Under the pieces are notes generated by a model. That model had not been told where the DNA came from and did no database searches. It saw only the letters and a program-made list of their open reading frames with translations. 64,000 bases of DNA from Acidobacteriota bacterium (GTDB lineage: Bacteria > Acidobacteriota > UBA890 > WLXD01). Where the stretch lies: NCBI GenBank assembly GCA_965205505.1, contig CBDBHB010000008.1, positions 512,001 to 576,000 of the forward strand. Direction: 5' to 3'. The translations under genes were made by a program, and so were the position numbers. Of the stretch, positions 37,313-54,691 are shown one piece after another. Each line of letters starts with the position of its first letter. The stretch's first letter is position 1.

Positions 37313-38566
37313 CTAGACAGGGCGCAGCATCGGCACCACCTTGCCGCCCTCAGCACTCAGGTAGGCGGCCCAGTCTTCCATCAGCTTCCGGCGCCGCTCC
37401 AGCAGGTCCGAGCGCGCATAGGCCGCCTCGGTCGGGTCGCGCACCGCATGCGCCAGCGCCGCCTCCATGACCGCCCGCGGTGCGTTGGTGCACTCCGCCG
37501 CCCAGTCCCGGAACGATGAGCGAAACCCGTGCGGTACCGCTTCAATACCCAGCTGCCGCAGCACCCGGGAAAGCGTTGCGTCCGCCAGCGGCCTGCCGGC
37601 CCGTGCGCCGGGAAACACCAGCCCCTCGCCATCCCTGAGCCCCCGCGCCTGGCGCAGGATCTCCATTGCCCGGCCCGATAGCGGTACCCGGTGCGCCCGG
37701 TTCGACTTCATGCGCTCGGGTGCAAGAGTCCACTCCCTCGCCTCCAGGTCCATCTCCTGCCAGGTAGCCAACCGCACCTCGCCGGAGCGGGCCGCCGTCA
37801 ACACCAGAAACTCCAGGGCCAGCTTCACCACCCCGGAGGCATCCGAAGCCCGTACCGCCTCGATCGCACCGTCCACCTCGGCATGCGGCAACGCCCGCAT
37901 ATGCTGTCGCCGCTTGCGGTGCCGTGGCAGCGCCTGGGTGATCGCCTCACCAGCCGGGTTGTCGCCACGGTACCCCTGCGCCATGGCCCACTTCATCACC
38001 GCACCGATGCGCGCCCGCACCCGCCGTGCGGTCTCGGCCTTGTCATGCCAGATCGGACCCAGTACCTCCAACACCTCGGCCGTCGTCACCTCCGACACCG
38101 GCATCTCACCGATGCGCCCGTACGCATAGGTGCGCAACTCCGTTTTCCATTGCGCCGCATACTTGGCGTTGCGCCACCCGGGGCGGTGCATCTCATACAC
38201 CTTGGCCGCTGCTTGCGCGAACGTCGGCATGCCCTCGGCCCGGCGCTTGTCTGTCAGCGGGTCACCGCCGGCACGGGCCAGCTTGCGGTTGGCAAATGCC
38301 ACCTCGCGCGCCTCCGACAGCGACACCAAGGGGTAGCCTCCGAGACCCAGTTCCCGGCGACGGCCCTGGATCACGATCCGCTGTACCCAGCTGCGCGCTC
38401 CGCTCGGGATCACGTTCAGGTACAGGCCGTGTCCATCGCAGTACCGGCCCGGCTTCATTACCGTGCGTACGAACGCCGCCGACAGGGCCCGCTCCGGGTG
38501 CTTGCCGCTCTTGCGCCGAGGGCTGGGTTTCGGTGCAGTTGCTTGCGCATCGGCGATATTCTGCAT
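37313..38566 (-). CDS. P4-like tyrosine integrase with Arm DNA-binding domain
   Basis: DGHGLYL, LGLGGYPLVSL, TAARSGE, HGFRSSFRDW, ALAH, AYARSD; catalytic set intact. Confidence 0.95.
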   Translation of the reverse strand: MQNIADAQATAPKPSPRRKSGKHPERALSAAFVRTVMKPGRYCDGHGLYLNVIPSGARSWVQRIVIQGRRRELGLGGYPLVSLSEAREVAFANRKLARAGGDPLTDKRRAEGMPTFAQAAAKVYEMHRPGWRNAKYAAQWKTELRTYAYGRIGEMPVSEVTTAEVLEVLGPIWHDKAETARRVRARIGAVMKWAMAQGYRGDNPAGEAITQALPRHRKRRQHMRALPHAEVDGAIEAVRASDASGVVKLALEFLVLTAARSGEVRLATWQEMDLEAREWTLAPERMKSNRAHRVPLSGRAMEILRQARGLRDGEGLVFPGARAGRPLADATLSRVLRQLGIEAVPHGFRSSFRDWAAECTNAPRAVMEAALAHAVRDPTEAAYARSDLLERRRKLMEDWAAYLSAEGGKVVPMLRPV

Positions 38567-38707: not shown

Positions 38708-39814
38708 ATGGCAGAGGTACGCGCTGCCGTCAGGCGCACGCGGCTCACATGGGACGACGCGCTGCTCGACCACAACGTGTTCGGGCGCTTGGCGCAGATC
38801 GTGCCCGCGATCGTCATCTACTCCGGCATTGGTCTCGTGCCGGATATCGTCGAGCCCGCCGAAAGGGCCATCCACAACGTCGCGAGCGCTTACATGGTCG
38901 TCATGATCATGCTGACCCTGACCGCGACAATGTCGGCGGCTAACCAGATCTACGTGACCTTCCCGCTGGCGCGCCACCGACCGATCAAGGGCTTCGTCCA
39001 GCTCGCGCAGATCGCTGTATACGTACTCGGCGCGATCGTGGTGATCGGAATGCTGATCGACCGCTCGCCGGTGATCCTCCTGAGCGGCCTCGGCGCTATG
39101 ACGGCGGTGCTGTTGCTTATCTTCAAAGACACGCTGCTGTCGGTGGTGGCCAGCATTCAGCTCACGGCCCAAGACCTGGTGCGCGTCGGCGACTGGATCG
39201 AGGTGCCTCAGTTCGGCGCCGACGGCGACGTGGTCGACGTCGCGCTCTACACCGTAACGGTGCAGAACTGGGACAAGACGATCACGACGATCCCGACTCA
39301 CTGGATGATCTCCGATTCGTTCAAGAACTGGCGCAGCATGAGTGATTCCGGCGGACGGCGGATCAAGCGGTCGATCAACGTCGATGTCAACTCGATTCGC
39401 GTTCTGACCGATCGTGAAATGGAGCGCTTCAAGGGTTTTGCGTTGCTGAAGAACTACATCGAGGCCAAGGAGGCCGACCTCAAGACCTACAACGAGACCC
39501 TCGATGAGCCGGGTGAGGCAGGCATCAACCTACGGCGGCTGACGAATATCGGCACTTTCCGCGCGTACATCCGCAACTACCTGGAACATCATCCGAAGAT
39601 TCATCACCGCCTGACGCTGATCGTGCGCCAATTGCAGCCCGGCGCCGAAGGTGTGCCGATCGAGGTCTACGCGTTCACCAACGACACGAACTGGGTGGCC
39701 TATGAAGGCATCCAGGCCGACATCTTCGATCACATTTACACGATCGCGCCCGAGTTCGGCCTGCGCATCTATCAGAAACCCGCTGGCGCGGATCTGGCTG
39801 GGCTGCGGGCCTGA
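38708..39814 (+). pseudogene. MscS-family mechanosensitive channel (YbdG-like), 5'-truncated
   Basis: FKDTLL, GDWIEVPQFGADGDV, VQNWDKTI, GGRRIKRS; first TM helix missing at integrase-element junction. Confidence 0.8.
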
Positions 39815-40063
39815 CCGTAGAAGGTCCTAGCAGGCCGAGACGCCAGTAGCCGTGGCCTCTGCCTTCACTCCTCCGATGCCATCTGCTCACGCCAGGGATC
39901 GTCAGGGTGCGCTATGCTCGTGCCCTGGCAGAGGGCCGTTTCGGAGCACTCAGACATTGTTTCCTTGGTGCTCGGATGGACACCGTTATGGTCACCAACG
40001 TGTTTTTTGAGCGACCCTGGGTGGCCTCGAAATCGACGCAAGCCCTTGATTTCAAGGAACGTA

Positions 40064-40147
40064 GCCGAGGTGGCGGAATTGGCAGACGCGCCGGACTCAA
40101 AATCCGGTGGGCTTACGCTCGTGAGGGTTCGAGTCCCTCCCTCGGTA
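40064..40147 (+). tRNA. tRNA-Leu(CAA)
   Basis: GCCGAGG/CCTCGGT acceptor, GGCGGAATTGGCAGACGC D-arm, CCGGA-CTCAAAA-TCCGG, long variable arm, GGTTCGAGTCC; CCA not encoded. Confidence 0.95.
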
Positions 40148-40919
40148 CTTTTGTATAATCAGCGACTTACAGACGATTAGGCAGCGGGCCTGTCGCCCCT
40201 GATTTCTCGTTTCGGACACCAAATCGGACACCTTCTGTGTCCTCGGATCCCGCTCAAGGAAGCGCAGCTCGGCCCCTAGAATACCGAAACTGGCAGAAAG
40301 CAGTATGAGGTCATCCGACGAGACACGGAGACCGCTCGTCACGATTTCGACTCGGATCACGTAGCGTGGGACGGTAGTGGCTTCGCGTTTACCAAGTACG
40401 GTGGCCCGGGCCGGCCTCCACTGCCGCTGGAGCAGACATATCCCACTCAAGGGCAGCCCGCTGATCAGCGGGCGCCGGTCCCTTTCGGAGTCATGCTCTC
40501 GGGCGGCAGAAGTCTGTCCGGGCGGACCCTTTGCTTCCAGGCCGGGAGTCTCACAGTCCCTTTTCTACTTGCCGTTACGAACCCATCACAACGCGATCGT
40601 GACTGCATGCGAGACAGAGGCAACATGGACCGCAAATCGCGTTCGTTGGTGGACTGGTCCAAGACCCTTGTACGCGCCGCCGATGGAGAGCAAGATCGTT
40701 AGGCTAAGCGCTCTCCGGACTTCAGCCACCCGAGTGCAGGTCAGCCTAGTCCCAGCCCCGCGGCGATCTGAGCAACCAGACCTCCGATCGAGGACACATC
40801 GCCAGAAACGCGCGCTAAGGAAGACCGGGTGAAACACGAGGACGCGGTGGAGGCCTGCCACAGCCTTCGGCGTCTCGCGTACAAGGGAGGTCAAGGGAAA
40901 AGCTCTGGAACAGGGAGTC

Positions 40920-40938
40920 TCAAATCCTGGCCCCGCTA
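40920..40938 (+). other. Possible tRNA-Met 3' end remnant (att core)
   Basis: TCAAATCCTGGCCCCGCTA resembles initiator tRNA T-loop plus acceptor; preceded by CAAGGGA x2 and followed by hairpin. Confidence 0.5.
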
Positions 40939-40942
40939 GTCT

Positions 40943-40992
40943 AAAGCCCCGGTGACGTACGCTCTGTTCCCCGTGCTCGTCACCGGGGCTTT
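40943..40992. terminator. Bidirectional terminator-like inverted repeat
   Basis: AAAGCCCCGGTGACG...CGTCACCGGGGCTTT perfect 15-bp stem. Confidence 0.7.
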
Positions 40993-41099
40993 CTGCGTCC
41001 AGAGGCCGAAGGTCCTCCCCGAGTGCTCCGGGTGCTCGTGCGGCGAGTTCCGGGTCTCACTTCAGCCGGTTTTGAACCGCCGTGTGTAAACTACCGTCC

Positions 41100-42554
41100 A
41101 TGGAGAGTATTTGGTCTCGATGGAGCACGGTCGCAACGTTACTGGGGGCTGGCGCGACGGTGGGCGCTCTTTACTACATCATGGCCCAGTCTGCACCTGG
41201 GTGGCTTCGCACGGTTGTTCTAATCCTATCGATATCGCTCATTGTCGGCGGGGTTCTCACGGCGCTCTATCTCTCTTGGGATCCTGTTCAGGCGGCGGTG
41301 AAAGTCGTCGCAGGAAACTGGCCAGAACGCGTGTTTTGGTCCGGTGTCGCGTTCGTCACGACAGGCGGTTTCCTGCTGGTTGTCTACTACGGTGTGATCC
41401 GTCCCGTAACGAGTTCTTCCAACTCACCGGCGCCACGCACCGTGTCCGATGCCGAGAACGAAAACCGCGGATCTGAGGACCAGCCTGCAACCGTCCCGGC
41501 GGATCCAGCGCCCGAGGAAGTCCTGGAAATCGATCAAGATCGTGTCGAGGCGTTTGACCAAACCGTTTTCGCAGGTACCGGCGACGCGGCGTACGACGGA
41601 GATGGAGGACCCGCAGTTCAAGCCGATCTGTGGGGGCCGCGCGGAATCGATGTTGATGCGGGCGGCAACGTCTATTTCGCGGCGGAAGGGAATCACGCGA
41701 TTCGGAGAGTGGACACCGACGGCATCATCACAACGATCGCCGGCAACGGAACAGGTGGCTGCGGAAAAGCCGAAGGGAGGGCGCAAGAGGTCCAACTACT
41801 AGCGCCGAAGGACGTCGCCGTTGACAGTCACGGCTTCGCCTTCATCGCCGACCCGAACTGCAACCGAGTGCTCCGGGTCGACGCGAACGGGACGATTACC
41901 AAGGTTGCGGGTACCAGCACGGCAGGCTTCAGCGGGGACGGAGGTCCAGCCACGGCAGCCCAGCTGGACGGTCCGTACGGTGTGGCGATCGATCACCAAG
42001 GGGCCGTGTACATAGCGGATCTCCACAATCAGCGGATCCGGCGAGTCGATCCCTCGGGCAGAATCTCGACAGTCGCAGGAACCGGCACCGCCGGATTCTC
42101 TGGAGACGGCAAGCAGGCTACCGACGCGACCCTCAACGACCCTCTCCGAGTCGCGGTGGACGCTGACGGCAGTATCTACATCACCGACCGTGGCAACCAG
42201 CGCATTCGCAGGGTCGACGCTGCAGGCATCATCGAGACCGTCGCCGGGAACGGCTCCCGAGGATTCTCTGGCGATGGGGGTTCGGCAATTCTCGCGCAAC
42301 TCAATGATCCCTCGTACGTCGAGCCCCTTGAGGAAGGCGCTTTCCTGATCGCCGATCATCTGAACAACCGGGTCCGACATGTCGACTCGTCGGGCCTGAT
42401 CACCACCTATCTCGGCGGCGAGCCGGATGAGGGGCACGAGGGGGCTACAGCTGTGCGCTTTGATGGAGTAATGGGCGTGGCCGTTGCCCCCGCCGGCAAC
42501 ATCTTCGTTTCCGAGAGCAATCGCCATCGAATCCGAAGACTCTCGGCTCAATGA
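41100..42554 (+). CDS. Membrane-anchored NHL-repeat (teneurin-like) beta-propeller protein
   Basis: Three TM helices then repeats of TVAGTG.AGFSGDGG.A..A.L..P..VAVD. Confidence 0.88.
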   Translation: MESIWSRWSTVATLLGAGATVGALYYIMAQSAPGWLRTVVLILSISLIVGGVLTALYLSWDPVQAAVKVVAGNWPERVFWSGVAFVTTGGFLLVVYYGVIRPVTSSSNSPAPRTVSDAENENRGSEDQPATVPADPAPEEVLEIDQDRVEAFDQTVFAGTGDAAYDGDGGPAVQADLWGPRGIDVDAGGNVYFAAEGNHAIRRVDTDGIITTIAGNGTGGCGKAEGRAQEVQLLAPKDVAVDSHGFAFIADPNCNRVLRVDANGTITKVAGTSTAGFSGDGGPATAAQLDGPYGVAIDHQGAVYIADLHNQRIRRVDPSGRISTVAGTGTAGFSGDGKQATDATLNDPLRVAVDADGSIYITDRGNQRIRRVDAAGIIETVAGNGSRGFSGDGGSAILAQLNDPSYVEPLEEGAFLIADHLNNRVRHVDSSGLITTYLGGEPDEGHEGATAVRFDGVMGVAVAPAGNIFVSESNRHRIRRLSAQ

Positions 42555-42695
42555 CTGACGCTGTGACGATCGCACGGACGATCCACCCGCCGACGGCGCA
42601 AGCCAGTCTGTCGGCGAGCACGCCATACCGCTTCGAGTGGTCAGCTTGCTCCAGGACGTCTTTCGGTATTGCGCAAGTATATGCCGCGACGTCCT

Positions 42696-43037
42696 CTAGT
42701 ACTCGTTCCTGAGCATCATCACGCCGTCAACACAGTAGAACGAGAATTCCTGCATTGGGAAGTCGGTGTACGGAATCGACTGCTCCACGATGACGGGTTC
42801 GCCAGTGTCTTCTTTAGCACACACGACAGCGCTCCGGTCTTCCTCGACCGCAAGCTCCCAAAGCTGGAATGGAACTCTCCTGAGCTGCGGCTGATAGCTT
42901 CCCACCAAATCAATGAGCCAGTAGCACTCCGCCTGATCAGCCAAGTACTTTATCCCATCGGTAAACAGCAGTCCCGTGTAGTTCCGGTAGTACTGCGTCG
43001 TTCCAATGAAGCCAGCTAGCTCATCCTCCAGTCCCAT
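42696..43037 (-). CDS. DUF6876 family protein
   Basis: GFIGTTQYYR..LLFTDGIKYLA...YWLIDL...Q.IPYTDFP...MLRNEY. Confidence 0.82.
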   Translation of the reverse strand: MGLEDELAGFIGTTQYYRNYTGLLFTDGIKYLADQAECYWLIDLVGSYQPQLRRVPFQLWELAVEEDRSAVVCAKEDTGEPVIVEQSIPYTDFPMQEFSFYCVDGVMMLRNEY

Positions 43038-43102
43038 AACTGCTGCAGAGCTCTTGGACGTTATAAAGCCCACGCCGTCAACTAGTACCTGTGGGAGAAG
43101 CT

Positions 43103-43255
43103 TCAAGACGCAATTACATCGGCTTCGTCCTCTTGCTGCTGCACGTGGTGTTCGATTGCCGAGATAATCTGTTGTCGAATGCTCACTCCTGTGCGTTCGC
43201 GTATTCGGTACATGGCACAAATCAGTGGCGGCGGGATGACCAGGCTGTACGTCAT
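43103..43255 (-). CDS. Small ribbon-helix-helix-like protein
   Basis: 50 aa; YSLVIP strand, helix, TGVSIRQQI..AI; Shine-Dalgarno (SD) GGAGG. Confidence 0.55.
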   Translation of the reverse strand: MTYSLVIPPPLICAMYRIRERTGVSIRQQIISAIEHHVQQQEDEADVIAS

Positions 43256-43341
43256 CTTCCTCCCTCCACAGTCGCAAGCTCCTGCTCGTGCAGGTACGCC
43301 ACGTAGACTTCCCGTACATCCTGCCAAAACGTCTGCCACAT
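43252..43341 (-). CDS. Small hypothetical peptide (29 aa)
   Basis: MWQTFWQDVREVYVAYLHEQELATVEGGR; GAGGAG upstream; ATGA overlap with next gene. Confidence 0.4.
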   Translation of the reverse strand: MWQTFWQDVREVYVAYLHEQELATVEGGR

Positions 43342-43359
43342 GAGCGGATCTCCTCGACG

Positions 43360-43587
43360 TTATAAGTAACTCTGGAAGACGAACCTAGTGCCCATCTTAA
43401 AGGCACTTCGCTTCTCTGCTCTCGTAATCAACAACTTCACCTTCAAGCCTAGTTCATCTGTTGGCGCTGCAATAACAAGCTGGCTCTCCGTTGGCTTTAC
43501 CTCGCACGTCCGCTGATCACATCTACGGAATCTTCTCCAAACTTTTTCTTCTTCTTTGCGGATTCTCTCCACTATTTCCTTCTTCAT
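43360..43587 (-). CDS. Hypothetical protein
   Basis: 75 aa; GAGGTGA SD 6 nt before ATG. Confidence 0.6.
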   Translation of the reverse strand: MKKEIVERIRKEEEKVWRRFRRCDQRTCEVKPTESQLVIAAPTDELGLKVKLLITRAEKRSAFKMGTRFVFQSYL

Positions 43588-44564
43588 TACCTTTCACCTC
43601 TGTTGTATTCGCTTTCCGACCCCAAAAGGGTGGGCCTCTTCGGGCCTTCTCCGACCAAGAGGGTCCGCCTGCCGATATGTCTTTAGGCCGTTAGGCCGAC
43701 CGGAGAGCAGCGGGGAGCGTCGTGGAGGGGAAAGACTTACGTGCAGGCGGAGAATCTATAACCAGCTAGACAAACACTTGGGCAGCCTGACTCGTTGGGA
43801 GCCTTTTGTGCGGTAGAACTCGGCATCATCACTGGAGCTGCGTGACGTTCCGTGTAGACACATGCAGACTGCGTCAGGACAGAAACTGGCGGGAGCCATA
43901 TCACCCTTCGCGGCTCTAGGCCATATGCTTCAAACCGAACCCGCAGAGAGCAATAGCCGCGACCCTCATGCCCCTTCGTTCCGACAGAGAGAAGATCATG
44001 TCCCGAAACAATAACCACGAGATTCGGTTCGAAGATCAGAACCGCGAAGGCAGAAATGCCTCCCGTTGGCAGCAGGAGTGTGCCGCAAGAGACGCGGTCG
44101 TTTTCCACGCCGTGAGACCGCGCGCCTAGGACGCTCCGAGCAAGCGGGCGTCAGCAGACACCGTTGGTAAATTCGATCTACAACGGCCTTCTCTGCTTGA
44201 CTCGGTCCATTTCAAGTTAACAGATGAAGCTTATGATGAAACAAAGACCTGTATACAAAATTGAAGAAAAACCACATTATCAAACAGAAACGCTATGGGC
44301 TGATAGTTATACTTAATGTTTCCTGCTTCTTTCATGTAATATACAGTGAACTTGACAATAGTTATTACGTAACTACTATTATTCTATTGTTAGAGACGAG
44401 ACTGATTTCCCACCTCACCACTACGCCACCCGTCCCCCTGGGGTGTTATTAGATGTATTTAAGTTTTGTAATGCAGATTAGTAGCTAGTCTGTCGTCAAT
44501 ATCATCGAACCTCTACGCTTTTTCTAGTTGATAGAAATCGTTACTCATGATGGCAACAGATAAC

Positions 44565-44765
44565 TCATCCTTTAGCTGCTGCCGGCCTTTGCACGCTCTC
44601 ACTGAACCGTGACGCCTGGAGAATCTCAACTCCAATCAGGTCGCCGTTCTCATCCAATTCGACATTGACCCCTGGGACAATCTCTTCAAAACTCTCCTGC
44701 TTGCCCTCTTTCACTAGTATGAAGAGAGAGTCAGATTCTTCGTCGTAGTTGTATTGCTTACTCAT
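44565..44765 (-). CDS. DUF2283 family putative antitoxin
   Basis: YDEESDSLFI...VELDENGDLIGVEILQAS. Confidence 0.88.
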   Translation of the reverse strand: MSKQYNYDEESDSLFILVKEGKQESFEEIVPGVNVELDENGDLIGVEILQASRFSESVQRPAAAKG

Positions 44766-45048
44766 TCTTCGTCCACCTCTTGTTAGCAATTCGGTTGATC
44801 ATCTGTTCTTCCCGTATCGGATGTATCGTTATAATTTCGACAGTATCATTCTTGTTGTAGGCAATCATCATCTGTCGCATTTTGCTGTTGTATTCCAAGC
44901 GCTTGATAGCGATAAGCGTCCGCTCGACCGTATCAAAGAACTTCTGGTCGGGCTCTTCCAAGACGAGCCTGGGATACTCACGCGGTATCCTCCGGGCCTT
45001 CAATCTCAGCTCTAGATGGCTCGTGTAAACAACTCTTGCCCTTTGCAT
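44758..45048 (-). CDS. DUF4258-like (BrnT/RelE-fold) putative toxin
   Basis: YTSHLELRLKARRI...EPD...IITIHP; overlaps DUF2283 gene. Confidence 0.75.
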   Translation of the reverse strand: MQRARVVYTSHLELRLKARRIPREYPRLVLEEPDQKFFDTVERTLIAIKRLEYNSKMRQMMIAYNKNDTVEIITIHPIREEQMINRIANKRWTKNE

Positions 45049-45181
45049 CTCTTGTAGATCGCTGAGTCTATAAAGCTATCGATTGCGAAAATCAGAGCGA
45101 GCGTCGTTCCAGTAGCTCCATTCTACTACCCGAACAGGCCGGGCCGGCCGGGCGTCACTGGACTTCCACTGAAGACGGGAC

Positions 45182-46507
45182 TTAGGATCTGTTCTGTACC
45201 AAGCCCTTCCCCACCTCAACCTTCGGAAACGCCACGTGTAGAGGACACCGCACTCGTCCTTTCAACGCAACAACGGCCTCTCCAACCTCGAGTAGATCGA
45301 TATAACCACGCTCCTCGTCATCCAGATTCAGACAACGAGCCATATCATCAACATCGTCGCCATTTCCTAGGTTGAAAACAATCTTGCAGTAGGTGTTCGC
45401 CTTGATGGAGTTGCTGAGCTTCGTCGGCTCCTGATCTATCACAACAACAGCTTCTCCAAATTCACGAATCTGACGCAGGCTCGTTTCGAGAATCGTCTCA
45501 GCCCCTTCCGCGCGTTCCTTCCGCCGAGACAGCACATGATGCCCTTCTTCGATGACGAGAGCGTGCTTGAAGACTTCGCGATTTCCTTCGTGTTTCCTGA
45601 ACTCGTAGAGCCACAGAATCACAGCCTCTGTGAGGAACACCTTATCTACGTCTGACAGGACGTCGAGTTCGAGCACGGCCGGAGCGTTGAGAAGCTGCTC
45701 GTCAAGCGCAGAATCAGTGTTCACCACCGGACCAAGGCCGTGGCGGAAGCACAGGCTTTCGAAAACGCGCACTGCGGATGCCTTCCACAGTTGCATCCTT
45801 CCCTGCGCGCGCTTCTTCAGCACACGATAGCGCACCAACAAGAACGTCGGCGTCCCCGTTGATGATTCATCATAGAACCCGCATTCGTCATACACGGTGT
45901 CGATGGCTTCCCTGAGCAAATACTCAACTCCTTCTCCCACGAAGTAGGCATGCTTGATAACATCGACTAGTTTCATCAGCCATTCGCCCGGCGCGGTGCC
46001 GGGAGGCGGAATCACCGGATTGAACTTGAATGGCTCAACATCGCCGCCAGGCCTATAGACACGTAGCTCCTTGAACTCCGGAAGCTGGCGAAGATCGCGG
46101 TAGTTGCGCTTCCAGTCAAATACCATGAATGGCTTCTTGTTCTTCTGGAACTCTCTCAGCATGTGGAAGACGAGATTCGTCTTTCCCGTGCCTGTCATCC
46201 CAACAATGAGCATGTGCTTGATCCAGTCGTCCTCCCGCATGCCGAAGCCACAGTATGTCTTTTCAGGCGGATAGCGGACGGTGCCGAGAACATACTTTCC
46301 ATAGCAGAGCGAAGGATGCGGCGGATCTAGCAGAATTCTCTTGCGATAGTCCTTCGCGAGCTTCTGAAACAGAAGAACGTCAACTAGCTCACTAGCGTGG
46401 CTACGCTCCTCGCCTTCCCCAGACAGATAGAGCAGCCAACCTTTGTCGCCTCTTCCCTTCCCCAGGGGAGCGAGCTTCCGCAGTTTCTCCTCAGTGCTCT
46501 CTCTCAT
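45182..46507 (-). CDS. HerA/FtsK-superfamily (DUF87-like) ATPase
   Basis: HMLIVGMTGTGKT Walker A, FDWK, VIEEGH Walker B, QIREFGE...IDQ.P. Confidence 0.85.
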   Translation of the reverse strand: MRESTEEKLRKLAPLGKGRGDKGWLLYLSGEGEERSHASELVDVLLFQKLAKDYRKRILLDPPHPSLCYGKYVLGTVRYPPEKTYCGFGMREDDWIKHMLIVGMTGTGKTNLVFHMLREFQKNKKPFMVFDWKRNYRDLRQLPEFKELRVYRPGGDVEPFKFNPVIPPPGTAPGEWLMKLVDVIKHAYFVGEGVEYLLREAIDTVYDECGFYDESSTGTPTFLLVRYRVLKKRAQGRMQLWKASAVRVFESLCFRHGLGPVVNTDSALDEQLLNAPAVLELDVLSDVDKVFLTEAVILWLYEFRKHEGNREVFKHALVIEEGHHVLSRRKERAEGAETILETSLRQIREFGEAVVVIDQEPTKLSNSIKANTYCKIVFNLGNGDDVDDMARCLNLDDEERGYIDLLEVGEAVVALKGRVRCPLHVAFPKVEVGKGLVQNRS

Positions 46508-46796
46508 TGTTCTGGAACAGCCGCTTGTGTAGAGCGAGCACGTCTTTGAAGCACTTGATTTCTTCGAGTAGCTTGAGCCTCTTCGTGTCGTTCAACTTCT
46601 TGATGAGTTCCTCGGATTCCCGTTCCAAACGCTCGATTTCCTCATCATGAAGTTGTTCCCTGTTACGGATTAGGTAGCTGATTACATCTCTCAGCTCAGC
46701 CCCGCTCGCCGTCACCTTGAGTAGCTCGTCGATGGCGTGCCTTCTTTGCTTATCGTTGTTTGTAACGTCCTTCCTTGACGTTGCTTTGTCTTCCAT
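46491..46796 (-). CDS. Hypothetical helical protein, overlapping the ATPase start
   Basis: 101-aa charged helical ORF. Confidence 0.6.
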   Translation of the reverse strand: MEDKATSRKDVTNNDKQRRHAIDELLKVTASGAELRDVISYLIRNREQLHDEEIERLERESEELIKKLNDTKRLKLLEEIKCFKDVLALHKRLFQNNEREH

Positions 46797-46989
46797 CTTG
46801 TATCAGGAATCGATAGAGAATCTCCGTTCTTAAGCTTTATAGTGCATCCTGCACTTCTCAGGGCCATTGAAACGCGTTAGCTGACCATTTGCAGGCGTGC
46901 CAGGCCTTCGGCTTCGATCGACTTGAAATTGGGTGAAGCCGTTATATAGTCCCCCCGCATTTACAACGACAGGAAAAGGGGATCACCTA

Positions 46990-47437
46990 ATGACCGAGGT
47001 AACGCTCACAAGGCCAACGAAACCTATGATGGAGGCTGTCAACGCTTCTTATCGCCGGCAACCAACAAGCGGTGGATGGGTTTGTGAAGCAGCACAAGCT
47101 AGACCGCCAGCTATTAGACAGATACGTGGCGAAGCGTGCGGGTAAGTCTTACGGCCTTACGCGTCAGAAGCGAGGCAAGAAGAAAGCCACGAAGAAGAGA
47201 GCGAAGAAAGCGCCGCCTCACGCTGAGGTACAAGATGTCCTGACGATGCTCGACCGCCGAACCAAGGTAGCTACGCTGCTAAGGTTGCAGGCCAAGGTAG
47301 CGGACTTAATCGCTCAGAAGGACGCGGAAGAGGTCGCCGCCATGCAGAGCACTCTCAAAAATCTCGAGAAGTTTCGCGAGCAGGCAGACGCGGCCGCCAA
47401 GAAGGTGAAGGACGCAGAAGCTCTACTAGGGATGTGA
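46990..47437 (+). pseudogene. Basic coiled-coil protein, apparent single-base frameshift near 47047
   Basis: MTEVTLT...VNA then LIAGNQQAVDGF...KRGKKKATKKRAKK in next frame. Confidence 0.5.
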
Positions 47438-47610
47438 GTCCCGACCGTCCAGCGTCCATCAAGCGCACACCCTACTTCTTTAACGTCGACTACTACCCGC
47501 GGACCGAGTACGAAGAATCATCTCCGGTACAGCGAAGGACGCGGGAATGCTCGTGATCTGCCATAGGCTGCTGGCCACGAGCGCGGCGCGCGAGGAGTTG
47601 GCCGATTACA

Positions 47611-48690
47611 GGCGTTGGTGCATGGCTCCTGATCTCAGTGCATCATCGTGGCAAGGTCCCCGATCTGGAGTTGCCACCCATGAAGTACCCGAAACGGAGC
47701 CAATACAAGTACGCGAAGTCTCGATATCGGATTCGCAATTGGCCTGAGTACGAGGCGGGCCTACAAAGACGAGGCAACGTTACGGTATGGTTTTCCGCCG
47801 ATGCCCTCGACTCCTGGTGGGCTCCACCTAGCGGGAAACCCGGCGGCCAACGCACCTACGCGGACATCGCAATCGAGGCAGCTCTCACGATCCGCATGGT
47901 CTTCCACCTTCCGCTCCGGCAGACCGAGGGCTTCCTGCGTTCTCTCGCAGACATGCTGCACGTGGAGATCCCTATTCCCGACCATACGCCTCTGTCCCGA
48001 CGGCTCAAGAAGCTTGGCGAGATTCCATTTCGTGCGGTCGCGAGCGATCAACCTATCCACCTGCTCATCGACAGTACGGGGCTCCGGATTCATGTCGGCC
48101 ATCTGCGCAAGCCACCGAAGCACAGAGCCTGGCGGAAGCTGCACCTGGCGGTCGACGCGAGTACGGGCGAGATCGTTGCCTCGGATCTGACCGGTCGTCG
48201 GACGCGTGACTGTGCTCGAGTTCCTGTGTTACTCGAACAGATCGACGATCCGGTGGCGTCCATCTCTGCAGACGGTGCCTACGACACCGAGGGGGTCTAC
48301 GAAGCGGCTCAAGCAAGGGGCGACGGGCGAGCAGTCAGAGTGGTCATTCCACCTGGACGCAACGCCCGGTTGCGTCCAAGACCGTCGGATGCGTTGAAGG
48401 AGAGAAACCGGAACGTTTGCTCCATCAGCAGACTCGGCCGACGCGAGTGGCACACGCGATCCGGCTACAGCAGCGCGCCATGGTCGAGAACGCGATCTAT
48501 CGATACAAGACGATCATCGGCCGAGACTTGAGGAGTCGCACGTTGGTGGGCCAACGCGTGGAGGTGCGACTTGCGTGCAGGATCCTCAATACGATGGCTC
48601 GTCTCGGGATGCCCGACAGCTACCGAGCGGCGTGATTCCATCTCGGACGAGGAACGAACTGTCCTGAGCTCCGAGCCATGCACCAACGCC
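47611..48690 (+). mobile_element. IS5-family (IS903-like) element; transposase 47680-48635 frameshifted near 48470
   Basis: Perfect 18-bp TIR GGCGTTGGTGCATGGCTC; RNWPEYE..L..RG, IDSTG, WRKLH, ADGAYD; no matching TSD. Confidence 0.93.
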
Positions 48691-48958
48691 CGTTCGGTCT
48701 GGAGTGAGGCCATGGTAACGCTCACTCCGCTGCGATATTACCGGGGATCGTGCTGACAGTCCGTCTTGTCGACTGGCAGGCTTCAACAACCTCTTGTCAG
48801 CACCGAGTTACTGAGAATAAGACGTGATACTAACCGAGGGGGCAGGTCACTTCGATCGATCGTGCCGCTCGGCGCAGCCGCTCAGGAAGTCGTCTACTTG
48901 GTTCGCCACCCCGAGAGGTGCAGGGTGGGAGGATCCGCCCGAAAGACGTCCCTCTTAC

Positions 48959-50179
48959 TTATTGACCCACTTTAAACTTAGCAGCTTCTCCAGATCCGCC
49001 GGTTGCATCACCCTCAGTGTAGGAATGTGCTCCGGCTCCTGCGAGCTTTCCGCCTTCCACGATAAGATATTCTTCTCGTATTTGCCTATCATCAAACCAG
49101 CATTCCAAGATTTCCTTGACGCCCGCTGCGTATCGAGCTTGAGCCGCCAGCGAAGTTCCGGATGTATGTGGCGTCATTGCATGGTTTGGCATTGTTCGCC
49201 AAGGGTGATCTCTTGGTGCTGGCTGTGGAAACCAAACATCCCCGGCATAACCGGCTAATTGGCCGCTCTCAAGTGCTCTTGCAACTGCATTACGATCACA
49301 GATCTTTCCCCGAGCAGTATTAACAAGATAAGCTCCACGCTTCATCTTGCCAATCATCTCGTCATCAAAGAGGTGTTCCGTCTCGGGATGAAGTGGACAA
49401 TTAACCGACACAACGTCGCAGACCTCGACCATAGACTCAACGCTATCGTGAACGGTTAAATCAAGTTCCTCTTCAACCTCTGGTGGGAGTCTATGTTTAT
49501 CAAAGTAATGGAGTTCTACATCGAAAGGCTTCATACGTCTTAGAACTGCTGAACCAATTCGACCTGCTCCTCCAACGATACCCACTCGCATTCCTTCAAC
49601 GTCATAAGACCTTGATACGCAATCAGCGATATTCCATCCTCCTTTGATAACCCAATTATATGAGGGAATGTAATTTCGAACGAGCGTCAAGATCATCATC
49701 ACAACATGCTCGGATACACTGATGCTGTTACAATAAGTGACCTCCGCCACCGTGATATCGTTATCGATAGCGGCTTGTAAGTCCACATGATCTGAACCAA
49801 TACCTGCTGTAATCGCCAGTTTCAATTTGGGCGAGTTAGCAACTCTTTCCGCAGTTATATACGCAGGCCAAAACGGTTGTGAGATAACAATGTCAGCATC
49901 AACGATTTCTTTTTCGAAGACGGAATCCGGACCGTCTTTATCAGCGGTAACAACAAATCGATGGCCGCGGCCTTCGACGAAGTTCCGTAGACGAAGTTCG
50001 CCAGAGACACATCCAAGAAGATCCCCAGGATGGAAATCTATCGCGCTCGGTGATGGCATTGATTGCCCATCAGGATAATGAGGTAGATTCGGGATATCGC
50101 GGCGCGCATATTGTGGCGGATATCCATCTACGGGATCATCATATAAGACACAGACGATCTTCAGGTTGTCTTTGCCCAT
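48959..50179 (-). CDS. fdh: NAD-dependent formate dehydrogenase
   Basis: LLGCVSGELRLR, ISQPFWPAY, GIGSDH, AGRIG, GDVWFPQP, TPHTSG. Confidence 0.95.
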   Translation of the reverse strand: MGKDNLKIVCVLYDDPVDGYPPQYARRDIPNLPHYPDGQSMPSPSAIDFHPGDLLGCVSGELRLRNFVEGRGHRFVVTADKDGPDSVFEKEIVDADIVISQPFWPAYITAERVANSPKLKLAITAGIGSDHVDLQAAIDNDITVAEVTYCNSISVSEHVVMMILTLVRNYIPSYNWVIKGGWNIADCVSRSYDVEGMRVGIVGGAGRIGSAVLRRMKPFDVELHYFDKHRLPPEVEEELDLTVHDSVESMVEVCDVVSVNCPLHPETEHLFDDEMIGKMKRGAYLVNTARGKICDRNAVARALESGQLAGYAGDVWFPQPAPRDHPWRTMPNHAMTPHTSGTSLAAQARYAAGVKEILECWFDDRQIREEYLIVEGGKLAGAGAHSYTEGDATGGSGEAAKFKVGQ

Positions 50180-50325
50180 TTTGCTCCACCTGGTTGTCTA
50201 ATCCGATCATTCCCCATGTGACATCTTGGCAAGCCCAGCGCTTGCCCCGAAGGACGTCAAACTACCGCCTTCCCCCGACAAGGCTGCCCTCTGTCGCGGG
50301 AGCTGTCTGCGTGGCCGCGGAACCG

Positions 50326-50464
50326 AGAGGTGGACCCCATCCTTCGGACAGGTTTTCGTCACCGCTAGGGTGGAATCTGGGTTGATGATTCAGGCAGCCT
50401 CCTCGTCAGTGTACGCGTCATCGGGCGTCAGGTCACCCAGCGACGAGTAGGGGCGCCGATATTG
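50326..50464 (-). mobile_element. IS3-family 3' end remnant
   Basis: RRPYSSLGDLTPDDAY* followed by right-TIR-like CTGTCC...GGGTCCACCTC. Confidence 0.6.
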
Positions 50465-50850
50465 ACGCCGGTTGCTCGGGGTCACCTCCCGGGGAAGGAA
50501 CCGAGGCTTCGGGAGGTTCAGACGGTCGTGCTAATTGACGGTCAGCAGCACTAGCCGGCCACATCGCGCCCGTTTGAGGTTCATCTGTTCAATATCCACC
50601 TGTCTGCACGTCGGCCCCGGCTCGGGACACCGGTGCTGGGCCGGTGGTTCGAGGGTATGAGCTACAGGGTATCTACTTCATCCCGGCGATCCTCGGAGCT
50701 TTCGGAGTACTCGTCCTCGCCATCGATTTGCTCAGCAGTTTTGGAAGCGTCTGTCAGGGAAAGCAAGCCGAAACGAGCTAGCCGCAAGGAAGAGGCGTGA
50801 AACGGTCAGCGTGCGCGGTAGTTGTGCGCCGCGTGGCCGAGGCCGGACAC

Positions 50851-51324
50851 TCAGTGGGTGACGTGGCTGAAGGTGCCGCGCCGGGGGTGTACGAGTCGCT
50901 CATAGTCTTGGAACGACATCCTGAACGTCTCGCGGTGATTGCCGGCGTTGAAGACGATGTACTCGTCGGCGGCGAGGCTCTCGTCGATGATTACCGGGAC
51001 GTCGTAGAGGTTGCCGAAGGGCGGCATGGCGCCCACTTCACAGTCCTCGAAGACCGCTCCGAACTCCTCCTCGGCCGCTAGCCGAACGCGCTCGGCGCCG
51101 ACCGCCTTGGCCGCGGTGTCGAACTCGATCTCGTGGTGCGCAGGGACGCAGAGCATCACCAGGCTGTCATCCGCCTTCACCATGACGACCTTGACGAAGT
51201 TCTTCCCGGGGACGTGCTCGGCGGCCGCGACCTCCTGCGCGGTATAGGTCTCGGGATGCACCACCACGGAGAACTCGGCTCCGTGCTCCTGCAAGTAGCT
51301 CGCAAGTCGTTGACGTCCGTCCAT
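50851..51324 (-). CDS. YbaK/EbsC aminoacyl-tRNA deacylase family protein
   Basis: HPETYTAQE, VKVVM, DCEVGAMPPFG, FNAGNH. Confidence 0.9.
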   Translation of the reverse strand: MDGRQRLASYLQEHGAEFSVVVHPETYTAQEVAAAEHVPGKNFVKVVMVKADDSLVMLCVPAHHEIEFDTAAKAVGAERVRLAAEEEFGAVFEDCEVGAMPPFGNLYDVPVIIDESLAADEYIVFNAGNHRETFRMSFQDYERLVHPRRGTFSHVTH

Positions 51325-51362
51325 CTCTCCCTCCCGACCCGGCAGGCCAACAGTCACACCCT

Positions 51363-52532
51363 CTAGCGGCTCGCCCCGACAGTGTCCCCTTCCGGCGCCG
51401 GTTGTAAAGCCAGTCGAACCGGTTGCCGCTTCGGGCCCCAGGAGCCGGGGGCCGATTCGAAAACACCGGCGCACGGGGTGCCGCACGCGGCACAAGCGCC
51501 GGCGGTCGGGTTCGCGCCCCCGTCTCCCTGCACATCCAGGTTCCACGCGGTCAGCAGGTACCAGTCGCGACCGATGAGGCGCTCCCCGCAAGCGTGACTA
51601 TAGGTGCTGCCCCCTTGTTCATCGTGGACGTTGCCGGTGTAGGCGTAGCGGACACCGTTGCTCACGGCGATCTCGCGGGCCCGCACCAGCGTCGCGGCCG
51701 GGGTCCTGGGTCGGTCCATCATCTTGTAATCGGGATGGAAGGCGGTGAAGTGGACGGGCACCGCGGGGCCGAGCTTGTCGACGATCCAGGCGCTCATCTC
51801 GTCGAGCTCCGCATCGGAGTCGTTGAGGCCGGGAATCAAGAGGTTGGTGATCTCGAACCAGACGTCGGTCTCGTGGGCGAGGTACTCGAGCGTCTCTAGC
51901 ACCGGGGCCAGCTCCGACAGCGTCACGCTCTTGTAGAACTCCTCGGTAAACGCTTTCAGGTCGACGTTGGCCGCGTCCATGTGGGCATAGAACTCGGCCC
52001 TGGGTTCGGTGCACACGTAGCCGGCTGTCACCGCCACCGTTTTGATTCCCCTCTCGCGGCAGGCATCGGCGACGTCGATCGCATACTCGTGAAAGATCAC
52101 GGGATCGTTGTAGGTGAAGGCTATGCTGCGCGAGCCCGATTCCTCGGCGGCGCGAGCCATCGCCTCGGGCGTCGCCTGGTCGGCGAGCGTATCGAACTCC
52201 CGTGACTTGCTGATATCCCAGTTCTGGCAGAATCGGCATGCGAGGTTGCAACCGGCCGTGCCAAACGACAGGACAGGGGTTCCGGGCAGGAAGTGGTTCA
52301 GTGGCTTCTTCTCGATCGGATCAACGCAAAAACCGCTCGAGCGACCGTAGCTCGTGAGAACGATCTGGTCCCCGTCACTGGCGCGCACGAAGCAGTGGCC
52401 CTGCTGCCCCTCGCGCAGCCGGCAGTAGCGCGGGCACAGATCGCACTGGATGCGGCCGTCTTCGAGCTGGTGCCAAAAGCGGCCGGGGTAGACATCGGGC
52501 GCCGTGGAGATTTGTCCCGAAAGAGCGGTCAT
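51363..52532 (-). CDS. amrS: AmmeMemoRadiSam system radical SAM enzyme
   Basis: CDLCPRYC, DPIEKKPLNHF, GCNLACRFCQNWDIS, FTYNDP, HFTAFHP. Confidence 0.92.
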   Translation of the reverse strand: MTALSGQISTAPDVYPGRFWHQLEDGRIQCDLCPRYCRLREGQQGHCFVRASDGDQIVLTSYGRSSGFCVDPIEKKPLNHFLPGTPVLSFGTAGCNLACRFCQNWDISKSREFDTLADQATPEAMARAAEESGSRSIAFTYNDPVIFHEYAIDVADACRERGIKTVAVTAGYVCTEPRAEFYAHMDAANVDLKAFTEEFYKSVTLSELAPVLETLEYLAHETDVWFEITNLLIPGLNDSDAELDEMSAWIVDKLGPAVPVHFTAFHPDYKMMDRPRTPAATLVRAREIAVSNGVRYAYTGNVHDEQGGSTYSHACGERLIGRDWYLLTAWNLDVQGDGGANPTAGACAACGTPCAGVFESAPGSWGPKRQPVRLALQPAPEGDTVGASR

Positions 52533-52831
52533 CGTCTTTGAGATAGCGCGGGTAAACCGTTCCCGTATTCAACAAGCGCCGAGCGGCCGTGGACACTGGG
52601 CTGGTTGGGCGGTACGAAAACGCCTTCCTCGATGAAGCATGCGGCCCAGCCTTCCCAGTCTCGCGTGCGAAAGGCCTCTTCCACCGCCCGCACGTGGTCC
52701 CCGAGTGCTGCAAAGGCTTCTGAATACAGCATGATTCCCCTCCTGGTCGGTACTCGTGCTATTGGCAGCCGTCGTTGAACCCGGCCGAACTCGGCTCCGT
52801 CCTCGTCTCGTACGACGAGGGTGTCGCCCAT
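52529..52831 (-). CDS. Hypothetical protein with truncated NTF2/SnoaL-like segment
   Basis: EAFRTRDWEGWAACFIEEGVFVPPNQPSVHGR. Confidence 0.4.
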   Translation of the reverse strand: MGDTLVVRDEDGAEFGRVQRRLPIARVPTRRGIMLYSEAFAALGDHVRAVEEAFRTRDWEGWAACFIEEGVFVPPNQPSVHGRSALVEYGNGLPALSQRR

Positions 52832-52862
52832 CGATGACCTCGAGCGTATTCATGGGCGGGGC

Positions 52863-53075
52863 CTACTCCTCGAGCTCGTGAAGACCGGCCATCTGTCGAT
52901 GTCCGTTGACCTGAGCCTGACTGAGGTCGATCCGCAAATGACCGCAGCCGCAGTAGTCGACCGCTCCGGTAGATAGGTTCGAGGCGTGAACCCGGACGAT
53001 ACGCCTGCACTTGCACCGATAGCTGACCTGCCCTGACAGAAGGTCCATCTTTAAGGGGATGAGCTGGCTTCTCAT
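52863..53075 (-). CDS. Small Cys-rich (zinc-ribbon-like) protein
   Basis: CKC...CGCG; ATGA overlap with upstream ORF. Confidence 0.5.
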   Translation of the reverse strand: MRSQLIPLKMDLLSGQVSYRCKCRRIVRVHASNLSTGAVDYCGCGHLRIDLSQAQVNGHRQMAGLHELEE

Positions 53076-53398
53076 TGGGCCGCCTTGGCCCGCAGGCCGG
53101 CCAGGCGCTTAGCCAGCCTCTCTGGAACGGCCCCAAGGGCCTTCGCTTGTCGTTCGTACCGCTCGAGGATCGCGAGCTCGTCGGCCGGCTGCTCCTTCTT
53201 CCGGTAGATGATGGCCAGGTGTTCGTAGTACCACGGATCAACCCCCCAGCCTCCGCCGTCGGCCTCGGCCTCGGAGGCGTCCACCAGGCGCAGGAGAAGC
53301 TCCTTCGCGCCATCGAGGTCGCCCACCCGCTTGAGGCGACGAACCTCCACCACGTAGGCCGAGTAGTGCCGTCCGTCGACGAAGCCCAGCTTGCTCAT
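53072..53398 (-). CDS. TPR-like hypothetical protein
   Basis: PWYYEHLAIIYRKK...ELAILERY. Confidence 0.65.
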   Translation of the reverse strand: MSKLGFVDGRHYSAYVVEVRRLKRVGDLDGAKELLLRLVDASEAEADGGGWGVDPWYYEHLAIIYRKKEQPADELAILERYERQAKALGAVPERLAKRLAGLRAKAAQ

Positions 53399-53488
53399 GC
53401 TCGTCGGCCTCTCACTGGAGGGCTCGGTAGGTGGTCGGGGTCATGGGACGGGACGCGCTGCAGCCGTGAAGGGGCACCGGATCAAGCG

Positions 53489-53682
53489 CGGCTACATGCG
53501 AGGCCCCCCAGCGCGGGACTCTCGACACTAGCTCTCCCTCTACAGTCCCAGTGTTGCCCGCTAGCGGCGGTCGGGGTTGCGGCCAAACTTGTCCCGCGCC
53601 GAGAGGTAACCTCATCCTAGTCGCAACGGGGGCGACTCGGCTACAGCGCGGGGAGCACTGAGCAACTCGGACACGGCTACAT
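53489..53682. repeat. Non-coding ~190-nt repeat unit, copy A
   Basis: CGGCTACAT recurs at 185-nt period; 53591-53682 aligns with 54314-54406. Confidence 0.85.
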
Positions 53683-53863
53683 GATGCGGGGAGCTAAGTT
53701 TCTGCCCGCGACTTTCCCTATTTCTGATAGTGGGGCGAAGTAGTCGCGGGCCATCGCCGATCGGGCGGCGCCGGCGGAGGTGGAGGAGGAAGAGGAGGAG
53801 GAGGAGGCTCCGGATATTTCCCTGTGTCCTGCGCCGTCCACAGTTTGTCGCTCTTCGGATCGG

Positions 53864-54136
53864 TCACTTAGTACCGTTCTCTTGTCTGGCGGCGAGGGCG
53901 CGGTCGATGGCATCATGTTTGAGCCTGGCGTGGATATCCTCGCTTACCCGCACCGCCCGCACCAGCGCCTCTACCTTCTCGGTGCATGTTTCCAGCAGGC
54001 CGTTGTCCACGTCGCGGGCTATCAACGCGCCGGCTAGTTTGCTCACTGCTTCCCGCGCCTCGTCGCGTAGGCTGTCGATGGTGGCGTCCATTTTCTCGAT
54101 GGCGGCTTCATATTGCTGTTTGGTGAACGGCATCAT
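53864..54136 (-). CDS. Hypothetical helical protein between repeat copies
   Basis: 90-aa ORF with GAGGGG upstream. Confidence 0.55.
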   Translation of the reverse strand: MMPFTKQQYEAAIEKMDATIDSLRDEAREAVSKLAGALIARDVDNGLLETCTEKVEALVRAVRVSEDIHARLKHDAIDRALAARQENGTK

Positions 54137-54219
54137 GCCCCTCGGACCCCGTAATTCTGGGGATTTTCGATACAACATGCAAGGCTGCGTAGCGCCTTCT
54201 CGCTCGCTAGGTTCCCCAG

Positions 54220-54659: not shown

Positions 54660-54691
54660 GCAGGCGCTCACCCCCCCTCTGCGGTAGCGCC

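Follow-up and report, generated by a model that had tools for sequence, protein, structure and literature searches.

Bacterial islands anchored at tRNA genes are recognized by a tRNA end, direct repeats of the tRNA 3′ end, atypical composition and absence from relatives, and their cargo includes insertion sequences (ISs), toxin–antitoxin pairs and ATPases. In archaeal promoters a TATA box lies about 23–30 nucleotides (nt) upstream of the transcript start, which in leaderless mRNAs is also the start codon, and the accompanying B recognition element (BRE) has a purine-rich consensus; a bacterial −10 box followed by a leader of 13–17 nt gives the same distances from box to ATG. Features of both are found in the segment described here, positions 42696–47437 (“the block”) of a 64,000-nt stretch of DNA (“the window”) from an Acidobacteriota bacterium (GCA_965205505.1, contig CBDBHB010000008.1, positions 512,001–576,000). 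A sequence-only reading had taken the block for an archaeal gene block carried within a bacterial island. We conclude that it is probably a horizontally acquired mosaic islet within an island of about 15 kb (40149–55508) anchored at tRNA-Leu(CAA). Since the traceable relatives of its genes are mostly bacterial, it is better described as an ordinary acquired islet than as a transplanted archaeal gene block.

The genes of the block also have described counterparts. MADS, as given in an excerpt of PMC13662399, comprises mad1–mad8 with a MAD7–MAD8 ATPase–nuclease module, while an excerpt of PMC11980606 places DUF4258 among the toxins of the BECR-fold RelE/ParE superfamily, with unknown target and “undescribed in the literature”. 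All genes of the block lie on the minus strand except that of the basic protein (47072–47437, plus). Genes and open reading frames (ORFs) are listed below, with Shine–Dalgarno (SD) sites and product lengths in amino acids (aa).

42696–43037, minus strand: DUF6876 family gene, 113 aa (Pfam PF21781, 1.9e-37)
43103–43255, minus strand: 50-aa ORF with SD GGAGGGAGG, earlier labelled ribbon-helix-helix (RHH); no family or PDB match
43252–43341, minus strand: tentative 29-aa ORF read from the sequence, with a GAGGAG SD and TTATAA 19–24 nt upstream
43360–43587, minus strand: orf75, an orphan of 75 aa with SD GAGGTGA; no family and no plasmid match
43588–44564, no strand: stretch of 977 nt with no supported gene; no Rfam match, unique in the genome
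44565–44765, minus strand: DUF2283 antitoxin-like gene, 66 aa, SD GAGGTGGA (Pfam PF10049, 8e-15)
44758–45048, minus strand: toxin-like gene, 96 aa, DUF4258-like only by gene order and language-model features
45182–46507, minus strand: HerA/FtsK-superfamily P-loop ATPase, 441 aa, short form (Pfam, PADLOC, PDB)
46491–46796, minus strand: 101-aa coiled-coil partner, overlapping the ATPase start by 17 nt
47072–47437, plus strand: orphan basic protein of 121 aa, a Lys/Arg-rich stretch followed by a coiled-coil-like tail

Much of the content named in the sequence-only reading was recovered. The DUF6876 assignment holds at 1.9e-37 in Pfam, the 121-aa product is Lys/Arg-rich as described, and the HerA/FtsK-type ATPase with a small partner is confirmed by a DUF87 match of 3.9e-09, above its cut-off, and by the 101-aa gene that overlaps its start by 17 nt. 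The RHH label (given to 43103–43339) gained no backing in Pfam, NCBIfam or PDB sequence searches of the 50-aa ORF.

Composition, integrity and island setting

The window belongs to a 1.32-Mb contig of a 5.98-Mb bacterial genome with 64% GC, and carries GroEL at 1197–2822. The GC content of the block is 51.8%. When 1254 tiles of the genome, each 4.75 kb long, are compared with it, none is lower, nor does any exceed the block in tetranucleotide distance from the genome mean, making the block the strongest compositional outlier of the genome. In 1-kb bins across 43001–47000 the GC fraction is 0.535, 0.460, 0.537 and 0.516, against 0.60–0.69 in the surroundings, so that the lower-GC segment noticed by eye is real. 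Third-position GC (GC3) of the block genes is 0.53–0.70, compared with a median of 0.785 for the long ORFs of the host genome, and every block gene is single-copy. Composition is also uneven within the block: in the 977-nt stretch GC runs at 54–62% (43600–44180) and then falls to 33–43% in an AT-rich tail (44200–44550) downstream of the toxin/antitoxin pair. The rank of the block as an outlier can be counted in favour of an inter-domain transfer of the whole block as part of an archaeal (DPANN) mobile element that kept its BRE-TATA and leaderless promoters, but the range from 33% to 62% is more in keeping with a mosaic than with one donor.

An abrupt GC shift near 42700 and the presence at the right border of a repeat, an IS5 element, where assemblers can misjoin, would also suit an assembly chimera in which a contig of another organism was joined into the bacterial one. 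Read-built contigs from Logan refute such a join. In run X3 a single contig of 7534 nt (depth 4.5) covers 40121–47654, and in run X4 a single contig of 6331 nt (depth 12.8) covers 41254–47584, each with 0 differences and one depth figure; both cross the left junction at 42600–42700, and the X3 contig ends at 47654, inside IS5. Since X3 and X4 may be the source sample of the window, they provide a check on the assembler and not on the sample. Run X1, from another study, has 0-difference pieces in the block (43502–43707, 44814–45008, 45719–46675) and in the left flank, the gaps in its coverage carrying no evidential weight, and in run X2 the small share covered consists of the tRNA, IS5 and short conserved parts only. 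With the window also forming part of a 1.32-Mb contig, a chimeric join is very unlikely, and we give the chimera next to no probability.

The island that contains the block is delimited by the following features.

40064–40148, plus strand: tRNA-Leu(CAA), left anchor of the island (ARAGORN; Rfam tRNA, 58.8 bits)
47608–48693, plus strand: IS5-family insertion sequence, right border of the block (NF033579, 205.9 bits, cut-off 140)
55445–55508, plus strand: first copy of the final 62 nt of tRNA-Leu, an att-like scar at the island's right end

Identical copies of these last 62 nt of tRNA-Leu(CAA) are found at 55445–55508 and 60580–60645, where they would mark the right ends of successive islands. 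Such scars suggest the tandem insertion of two islands, of about 15.3 kb and 5.1 kb, at the tRNA gene. A genome of the same genus, G004, matches at 94% over 38716–40169 and then diverges. Among 30 related genomes none of the listed DNA matches falls within 42700–47600 (54 weaker matches stand outside the listing), and those listed for 40000–51000 are to the tRNA, IS5, a formate dehydrogenase cassette and a few short repeats. The description of the block as a foreign segment in mobile-element surroundings is upheld by its composition, the tRNA-Leu island, the att-like repeats and the adjacent IS5. The island thus resembles other tRNA-anchored bacterial islands in its tRNA end, 3′-end repeats, atypical composition, absence from relatives and cargo of IS, toxin–antitoxin pair and ATPase. 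It differs in that no integrase was found among its scanned ORFs and in its own mosaic make-up, in which pieces of normal and of low GC are combined; the sole integrase-domain gene of the window (37313–38566) lies on the 5′ side of the tRNA, outside the island.

The IS5 element has 21-nt inverted repeats that are 95% complementary. Its transposase frame is seemingly split (47638–48531 and 48417–48635), and shorter deletion derivatives occur in read contigs, with joints at 47759/48659 and 47761/48472. Close to the tRNA repeats, a truncated Ser/Thr kinase N-terminus (54569–55114) stands just before the first tRNA repeat, and a full-length kinase (60909–63563) follows the second. An NAD-dependent formate dehydrogenase gene (48959–50179; NF005750, 690 bits) has a GC content of 47.8% and a GC3 of 0.40, below every long ORF of the genome; it recurs in at least four places in G004 at 88–96% identity and is flanked on both sides by stretches of about 75 nt (48776–48852 and 50326–50401) that are frequent repeats in related genomes. 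The interval 48776–50422 looks like a metabolic gene cassette between repeats resembling IS ends or miniature inverted-repeat transposable elements. To the left of the tRNA lies a Drt4-like reverse transcriptase (25828–27402; 250 bits, under the 450-bit cut-off), and together with the integrase-domain gene at 37313–38566 it may mark a second accessory or defence region adjoining the one studied here.

Relatives of the ATPase, its partner and DUF6876

The ATPase matches PF01935 (DUF87) with 37.4 bits (cut-off 23.2; 3.9e-09) and PF10412 (TrwB_AAD_bind) with 28.6 bits (cut-off 20.5), and its Walker A motif, GMTGTGKTN, is invariant across 29 homologues. In PADLOC its best model is mad8 (3.8e-15, 54 bits), with most of the core covered, while no PADLOC model matched the other seven scanned block proteins. 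PDB sequence matches are weak: HerA (4d2i) at 3.5e-05, plus a DUF87 protein. Its likeness to archaeal HerA and to MAD8 lies in the DUF87/HerA-type P-loop core.

At E ≤ 1e-3 the ATPase has 458 homologues, of which the best 120 are 57–72% identical. Among the matches listed, four clusters carry organism names: that of the best match (72%) includes Acidobacteria bacterium AH-259-D05, and the others contain metagenome-assembled genomes (MAGs) of Acidobacteriota (69%), Thermodesulfobacteriota (60%) and Methanosarcinales (58%, on a 2.3-kb contig). A tree was built from 122 rows: the best 120 of the 458 matches, one member of a cluster and, as outgroup, a Gemmatimonadota sequence. It places the window sequence together with both Acidobacteria names in a clade of 99 rows (Shimodaira–Hasegawa-like approximate likelihood-ratio test, SH-aLRT, 99), and the archaeal and Thermodesulfobacteriota sequences in a separate clade of 17 rows. 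Remoter relatives occur in MAGs of Gemmatimonadota and Latescibacterota. Within the host phylum the ATPase was found in 7 of 400 other species, once as a close relative (66%, cut short by an IS) and otherwise at 29–35%. Plasmid relatives are about 25–30% identical (39 records, including Streptomyces 19 and Halanaeroarchaeum 2); no relative was found in the viral collection, and only two matches, of 25% identity, in the phage collection.

The 101-aa partner matched no known family, and the Atlas offered no usable match. It is also found directly upstream of the ATPase gene at two other loci, L006 (57% identity) and L005 (31%), and a C-terminal ExxxFxDxLxLH motif is common to all three. At L012, L013, L028, L029 and L030 the corresponding place, before ATPase forms of about 650 aa, is taken by longer coiled-coil ORFs; the last of these loci is from genome G047, and the finding holds without it. 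The overlap of the genes and the conservation of the pair lead us to infer that the partner binds the ATPase. At L006 the pair is accompanied by a TIR-FGE protein and an Mrr-type nuclease, and at L002 the ATPase has a tyrosine recombinase as neighbour. Because of the TIR and Mrr neighbours at L006 and the mad8-like core, we favour a putative role in conflict or defence over one in DNA transfer. The less exotic of the open readings is that the adaptor and the short HerA/FtsK ATPase would constitute a hitherto undescribed conflict system of two genes, distributed across bacterial phyla.

Assignment to systems already described was rejected in each case. As MADS the locus would need an eight-gene operon that includes methyltransferase, kinase and nuclease genes, which is missing, the single mad8-like match being all that was found. 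HerA proper and HerA–NurA are rejected because scores against the NCBIfam HerA models (27–29 bits) lie far under their cut-offs of 800–970, as all NCBIfam matches lie far below threshold, and because the nuclease partner is missing; HerA systems differ from the window locus, where NurA, Sir2, DUF4297 and nuclease partners are lacking and a coiled-coil neighbour is present instead. Membership among conjugative coupling proteins (TraG/TrwB) is likewise rejected, with scores under threshold and partners missing. Distant ATPase relatives (29–41% identity; L002/L010, L011, L012 and L028–L030) are about 650 aa long, with a C-terminal extension of about 200 aa that has no Pfam match. The ATPase gene is preceded at L002 and L010 by a tyrosine recombinase, and at L028 and L029 by a MarR-like winged-helix gene and a coiled-coil gene.

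DUF6876 gives a full-length Pfam match (PF21781, 128.3 bits, cut-off 27; profile positions 3–117 of 117). It has 94 other homologous proteins, nearly all on short metagenome contigs, including the closest (65–75% identity). The family appears in 107 plasmid records, 97 of them from ten genera of bacteria, among these Piscirickettsia (48), Acetobacter (20) and Acaryochloris (9); the remaining ten genera are only partly shown, and every genus named is bacterial. Of 400 other genomes of the host phylum, two contain a match (44% and 31%), and three distant loci occur in the viral collection. A PDB sequence search returned no significant match, and the literature search returned no paper mentioning the family. 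The plasmid copies of cyanobacteria, Acetobacter and Piscirickettsia share 39–47% identity with the window protein, and DUF6876 is, judged by these relatives, a family typical of bacterial plasmids. On an Acetobacter conjugative plasmid of the MOBF type the gene stands between ParB-N/DUF3085 and a zincin-like gene, whereas in the window it is chromosomal, in a tRNA island, and lacks those neighbours. Among the remaining small genes, the basic 121-aa protein has a sub-threshold PspA match only and none among plasmids or PDB sequences.

These relatives bear directly on the proposal of an archaeal origin for the whole block. HerA-type ATPases and DUF2283 are common in archaea, which was counted for it, as were the single archaeal MAG homologue of the ATPase at 58% and the two Halanaeroarchaeum records among the 39 distantly matching plasmid records. 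Against this, the ATPase groups with Acidobacteria, apart from the archaeal sequence, the plasmid genera named for DUF6876 are all bacterial, and Pfam and NCBIfam searches found no archaeal hallmark gene among the block genes. Membership of an archaeal lineage is thus not what the genes indicate, the toxin being the only one with a named close archaeal relative. Judged from their relatives, an archaeal source is contradicted for the ATPase and DUF6876 modules, and for the block as a whole we consider it highly improbable. The sequence-only reading had named uniformly bacterial nearest homologues as the observation that would speak against it; this observation was made only in part, the sole named relative of the toxin being from Nanoarchaeota.

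Promoter-like elements and translation signals

The archaeal proposal arose from short motifs upstream of the genes, all of which were confirmed at the positions originally given. The principal elements are as follows.

43061–43068, minus strand: TATA-like box CTTTATAA, 24–31 nt before the DUF6876 ATG (43037), with TTTATA starting at −30
45068–45081, minus strand: CGATAGCTTTATAG, with TTTATA 21–26 nt before the toxin ATG (45048), starting at −26
46828–46839: AAAGCTTAAGAA, 32–43 nt before the partner ATG at 46796
46923–46950, plus strand: sigma-70-like promoter TTGAAA-16-TATAGT, 10 of 12 consensus positions

TATA-like boxes are present at the stated distances before DUF6876 and the toxin. The description does not extend to AAAGCTTAAGAA, which is not a TATA box (the TATAAA of the partner gene lies at −45 to −40), nor to TTATATAG at 46942–46949, which forms the −10 part of the sigma-70-like TTGAAA-16-TATAGT. 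A TTTAWA motif starting −36 to −23 from the ATG, a distance window set after the data had been viewed, is present at 2 of the 8 block starts. Dinucleotide shuffling of the block attained this in only 1 of 5000 trials, and shuffling of the 60-nt pieces before the starts in 2 of 5000. TTTATA and TATAAA are avoided genome-wide (89 observed, about 392 expected), and the three occurrences in the block are all intergenic. The placement beyond that of shuffled sequence and the rarity of these hexamers in the genome make it very likely that the boxes are functional elements and not products of chance.

Whether they are archaeal is a separate matter. Non-random placement speaks for transfer of the whole block from an archaeon, and the likeness to archaeal BRE-TATA leaderless promoters consists in TTTATA-type hexamers starting 26–30 nt before two SD-less starts; the spacing fits DUF6876 (−30) and roughly the toxin (−26). 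A bacterial −10 box followed by a short leader would account for these distances equally well, and the boxes do not show archaeal ancestry. The bases upstream of the two well-placed boxes, GCGTGGGC and TCGATAGC, are GC-rich (GGGC and TAGC) and do not form a purine-rich BRE, and SDs at other genes and mostly bacterial traceable relatives further separate the block from that promoter type. Starts that lack an obvious SD account for 5 of the 8 genes, while the other three have strong sites: GGAGGGAGG (43255), GAGGTGA (6 nt before the ATG at 43587) and GAGGTGGA (44765), or 4 of 9 if the tentative 29-aa ORF is included. These SD sites, with the one sigma-70-like promoter, count against archaeal origin of the whole block; the sigma-70 scan total was four, not above shuffled sequence (3.0 ± 1.6). 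A short pattern for the 3′ end of 16S rRNA, which bears the anti-SD, found no match.

Comparable boxes occur elsewhere. TATA-like hexamers lie 20–33 nt before ORFs of at least 60 aa, under a crude ORF definition, at about 24 further places in normal-GC DNA of this genome, and L005, a metagenome contig of 56% GC, has a CTTATAAC box 25–30 nt before the ATG of its partner gene. Within the block, a 22-nt repeat, TTATAACGTCnAnGAG, is present at 43045–43066, before the DUF6876 ATG and overlapping the CTTTATAA box, and again at 43344–43365, where it precedes the tentative 29-aa ORF and is followed by the GAGGAG SD. That ORF has no homologue support, and its stop overlaps the ATG at 43255 (ATGA). The 10-mer AGCTTTATAG has three copies genome-wide, two of them in the block (45068–45081, and inverted at 46833–46842), and the 8-mer ATCGATAG precedes the toxin gene (45068–45083) and recurs in inverted form, with a gap of 18 nt, in the intergenic region between the partner and basic-protein genes (46809–46842). 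The AGCTTTATAG and ATCGATAG sites may represent a shared operator or promoter element, the two copies being also compatible with chance.

The putative toxin–antitoxin cassette and a probable mosaic of mobile modules

The toxin-like gene and the DUF2283 gene are small, co-directional and overlap by 8 nt (antitoxin start and toxin stop), with an SD on the second gene. They have the gene layout of a type II toxin–antitoxin module, from which toxin and antitoxin activities are predicted. The earlier identification as a DUF4258–DUF2283 pair is secure for its second member, with 55.2 bits to PF10049 (cut-off 23), 292 representative homologous proteins at E ≤ 1e-3 and best identities of about 53–63%. 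For the first member, DUF4258 is indicated by features and gene order only. The toxin has no match to PF14076 up to E = 10, a six-frame family search of the genome gave none, and hhalign to the Thermus DUF4258 toxin gave an insignificant probability of 0.8%. In language-model features it scores 0.92–0.93 to DUF4258-containing clusters of the Atlas, and its nearest feature clusters are 73%, 55% and 100% Bacteria, one of them being half DUF4258. No toxin relative was found in the viral, phage or plasmid collections, and its profile had no significant PDB sequence match.

The Thermus thermophilus plasmid pTthSNM1-1e carries a comparable pair of small genes, DUF4258 first and DUF2283 second as in the window, and its DUF2283 protein is 46% identical to the window antitoxin; the window toxin departs from such pairs in being unmatched by the Pfam DUF4258 model. 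The excerpt of PMC11980606 gives the order for DUF4258 as A/T, whereas the toxin comes first in both the window and the Thermus pair. The literature search returned no paper mentioning both DUF4258 and DUF2283. A homologous pair is also present in a genome of the host phylum, G260, at locus L035 (contig C45, 104–748), where a toxin of 34% identity overlaps DUF2283 and the two are bracketed by 35-nt inverted repeats, 94% complementary. Since the G260 pair is bracketed in this way, the pair may move as a small cassette in bacteria. Beside it lies a 326-aa ORF (786–1766) that by eye resembles an IS200/REP-associated tyrosine transposase.

Only six relatives of the toxin were found among 5.8 billion proteins. 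The window protein is about equally distant from all six (54–63% identity), forming a tight group of seven, and the sole relative with an organism name is from a Nanoarchaeota MAG (MEK6964409.1, 61%, contigs up to 80,755 nt). This relative, together with the position of the pair in the lowest-GC part of the block (33–49%), the TATA-like box at −26 of an SD-less first gene followed by an SD on the second, and the scarcity of the toxin in the host phylum (best match 34%, in G260, the single one of 400 other genomes), would be consistent with exchange of just the toxin–antitoxin cassette (about 44180–45100, with AT-rich tail and TATA-type promoter) with a DPANN archaeon, in either direction, the rest of the block being bacterial. 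One named match of six is thin, however, and the toxin is not specifically close to it; the nearest feature clusters are mostly bacterial, the same gene pair is present on Thermus plasmids and its homologue in the host phylum, and MAG binning of small mobile cassettes is error-prone. DPANN genomes have a low GC range, and the GC3 of the two genes (0.63 and 0.55) is above expectation for such a donor. We therefore regard exchange of the cassette as unlikely. A more specific version, in which cassette, AT-rich flank and TATA-type promoter were exchanged between Nanoarchaeota and the acidobacterium, with the TATA doubling as a −10 box that still drives the operon, seems to us distinctly unlikely.

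Several observations nevertheless weigh against a mosaic islet of mostly bacterial kin. The archaeal relative of the toxin and the near absence of this protein from the host phylum are two of them, and the layout of the toxin operon is a third, as it is the one expected of archaea. Most of the proteins closely related to DUF6876, to the antitoxin or to the ATPase are encoded on metagenome contigs with no host assignment, and four products, namely the 50-aa ORF, orf75, the partner and the basic protein, gave no taxonomic signal. No integrase domain was detected among the scanned ORFs between 40149 and 55508, and no canonical −35/−10 pair is present on the minus strand before the DUF6876, toxin or partner genes.

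We still prefer to think of the block as an islet that ends at IS5 and is composed of several small “selfish” modules, each able to move on its own. The first would comprise the DUF6876 gene and, upstream of it, one or two very small ORFs, and the second the orphan 75-aa gene. A third would be the toxin–antitoxin cassette, in which a predicted RNase of the BECR type (RelE/ParE) would be neutralised by DUF2283, and which may stabilise the island or abort phage infection. In the fourth, a pair apparently conserved across bacterial phyla, the ATPase would act on DNA as a ring motor, recruited or gated by its coiled-coil adaptor, and in the fifth the basic coiled-coil protein would be expressed from the sigma-70-like promoter. 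The TATA-like boxes would be AT-rich elements of promoters or operators, brought along by the modules.

The block carries a caution for the reading of such sequences, because in a high-GC bacterium that carries foreign DNA of low GC, AT-rich boxes about 25 nt before starts in that DNA look archaeal by eye, while relatives, SD sites and the sigma-70-like promoter point here to bacterial mobile modules. It also offers two leads. The widespread, uncharacterised pair of adaptor and HerA/FtsK ATPase, with 458 homologues of the ATPase, is one. The other is the rare seven-member toxin family with DPANN as its sole named relative, which could document toxin–antitoxin traffic between ultrasmall archaea and bacteria; if true, exchange of the cassette would be a small case of inter-domain transfer with promoter carry-over.

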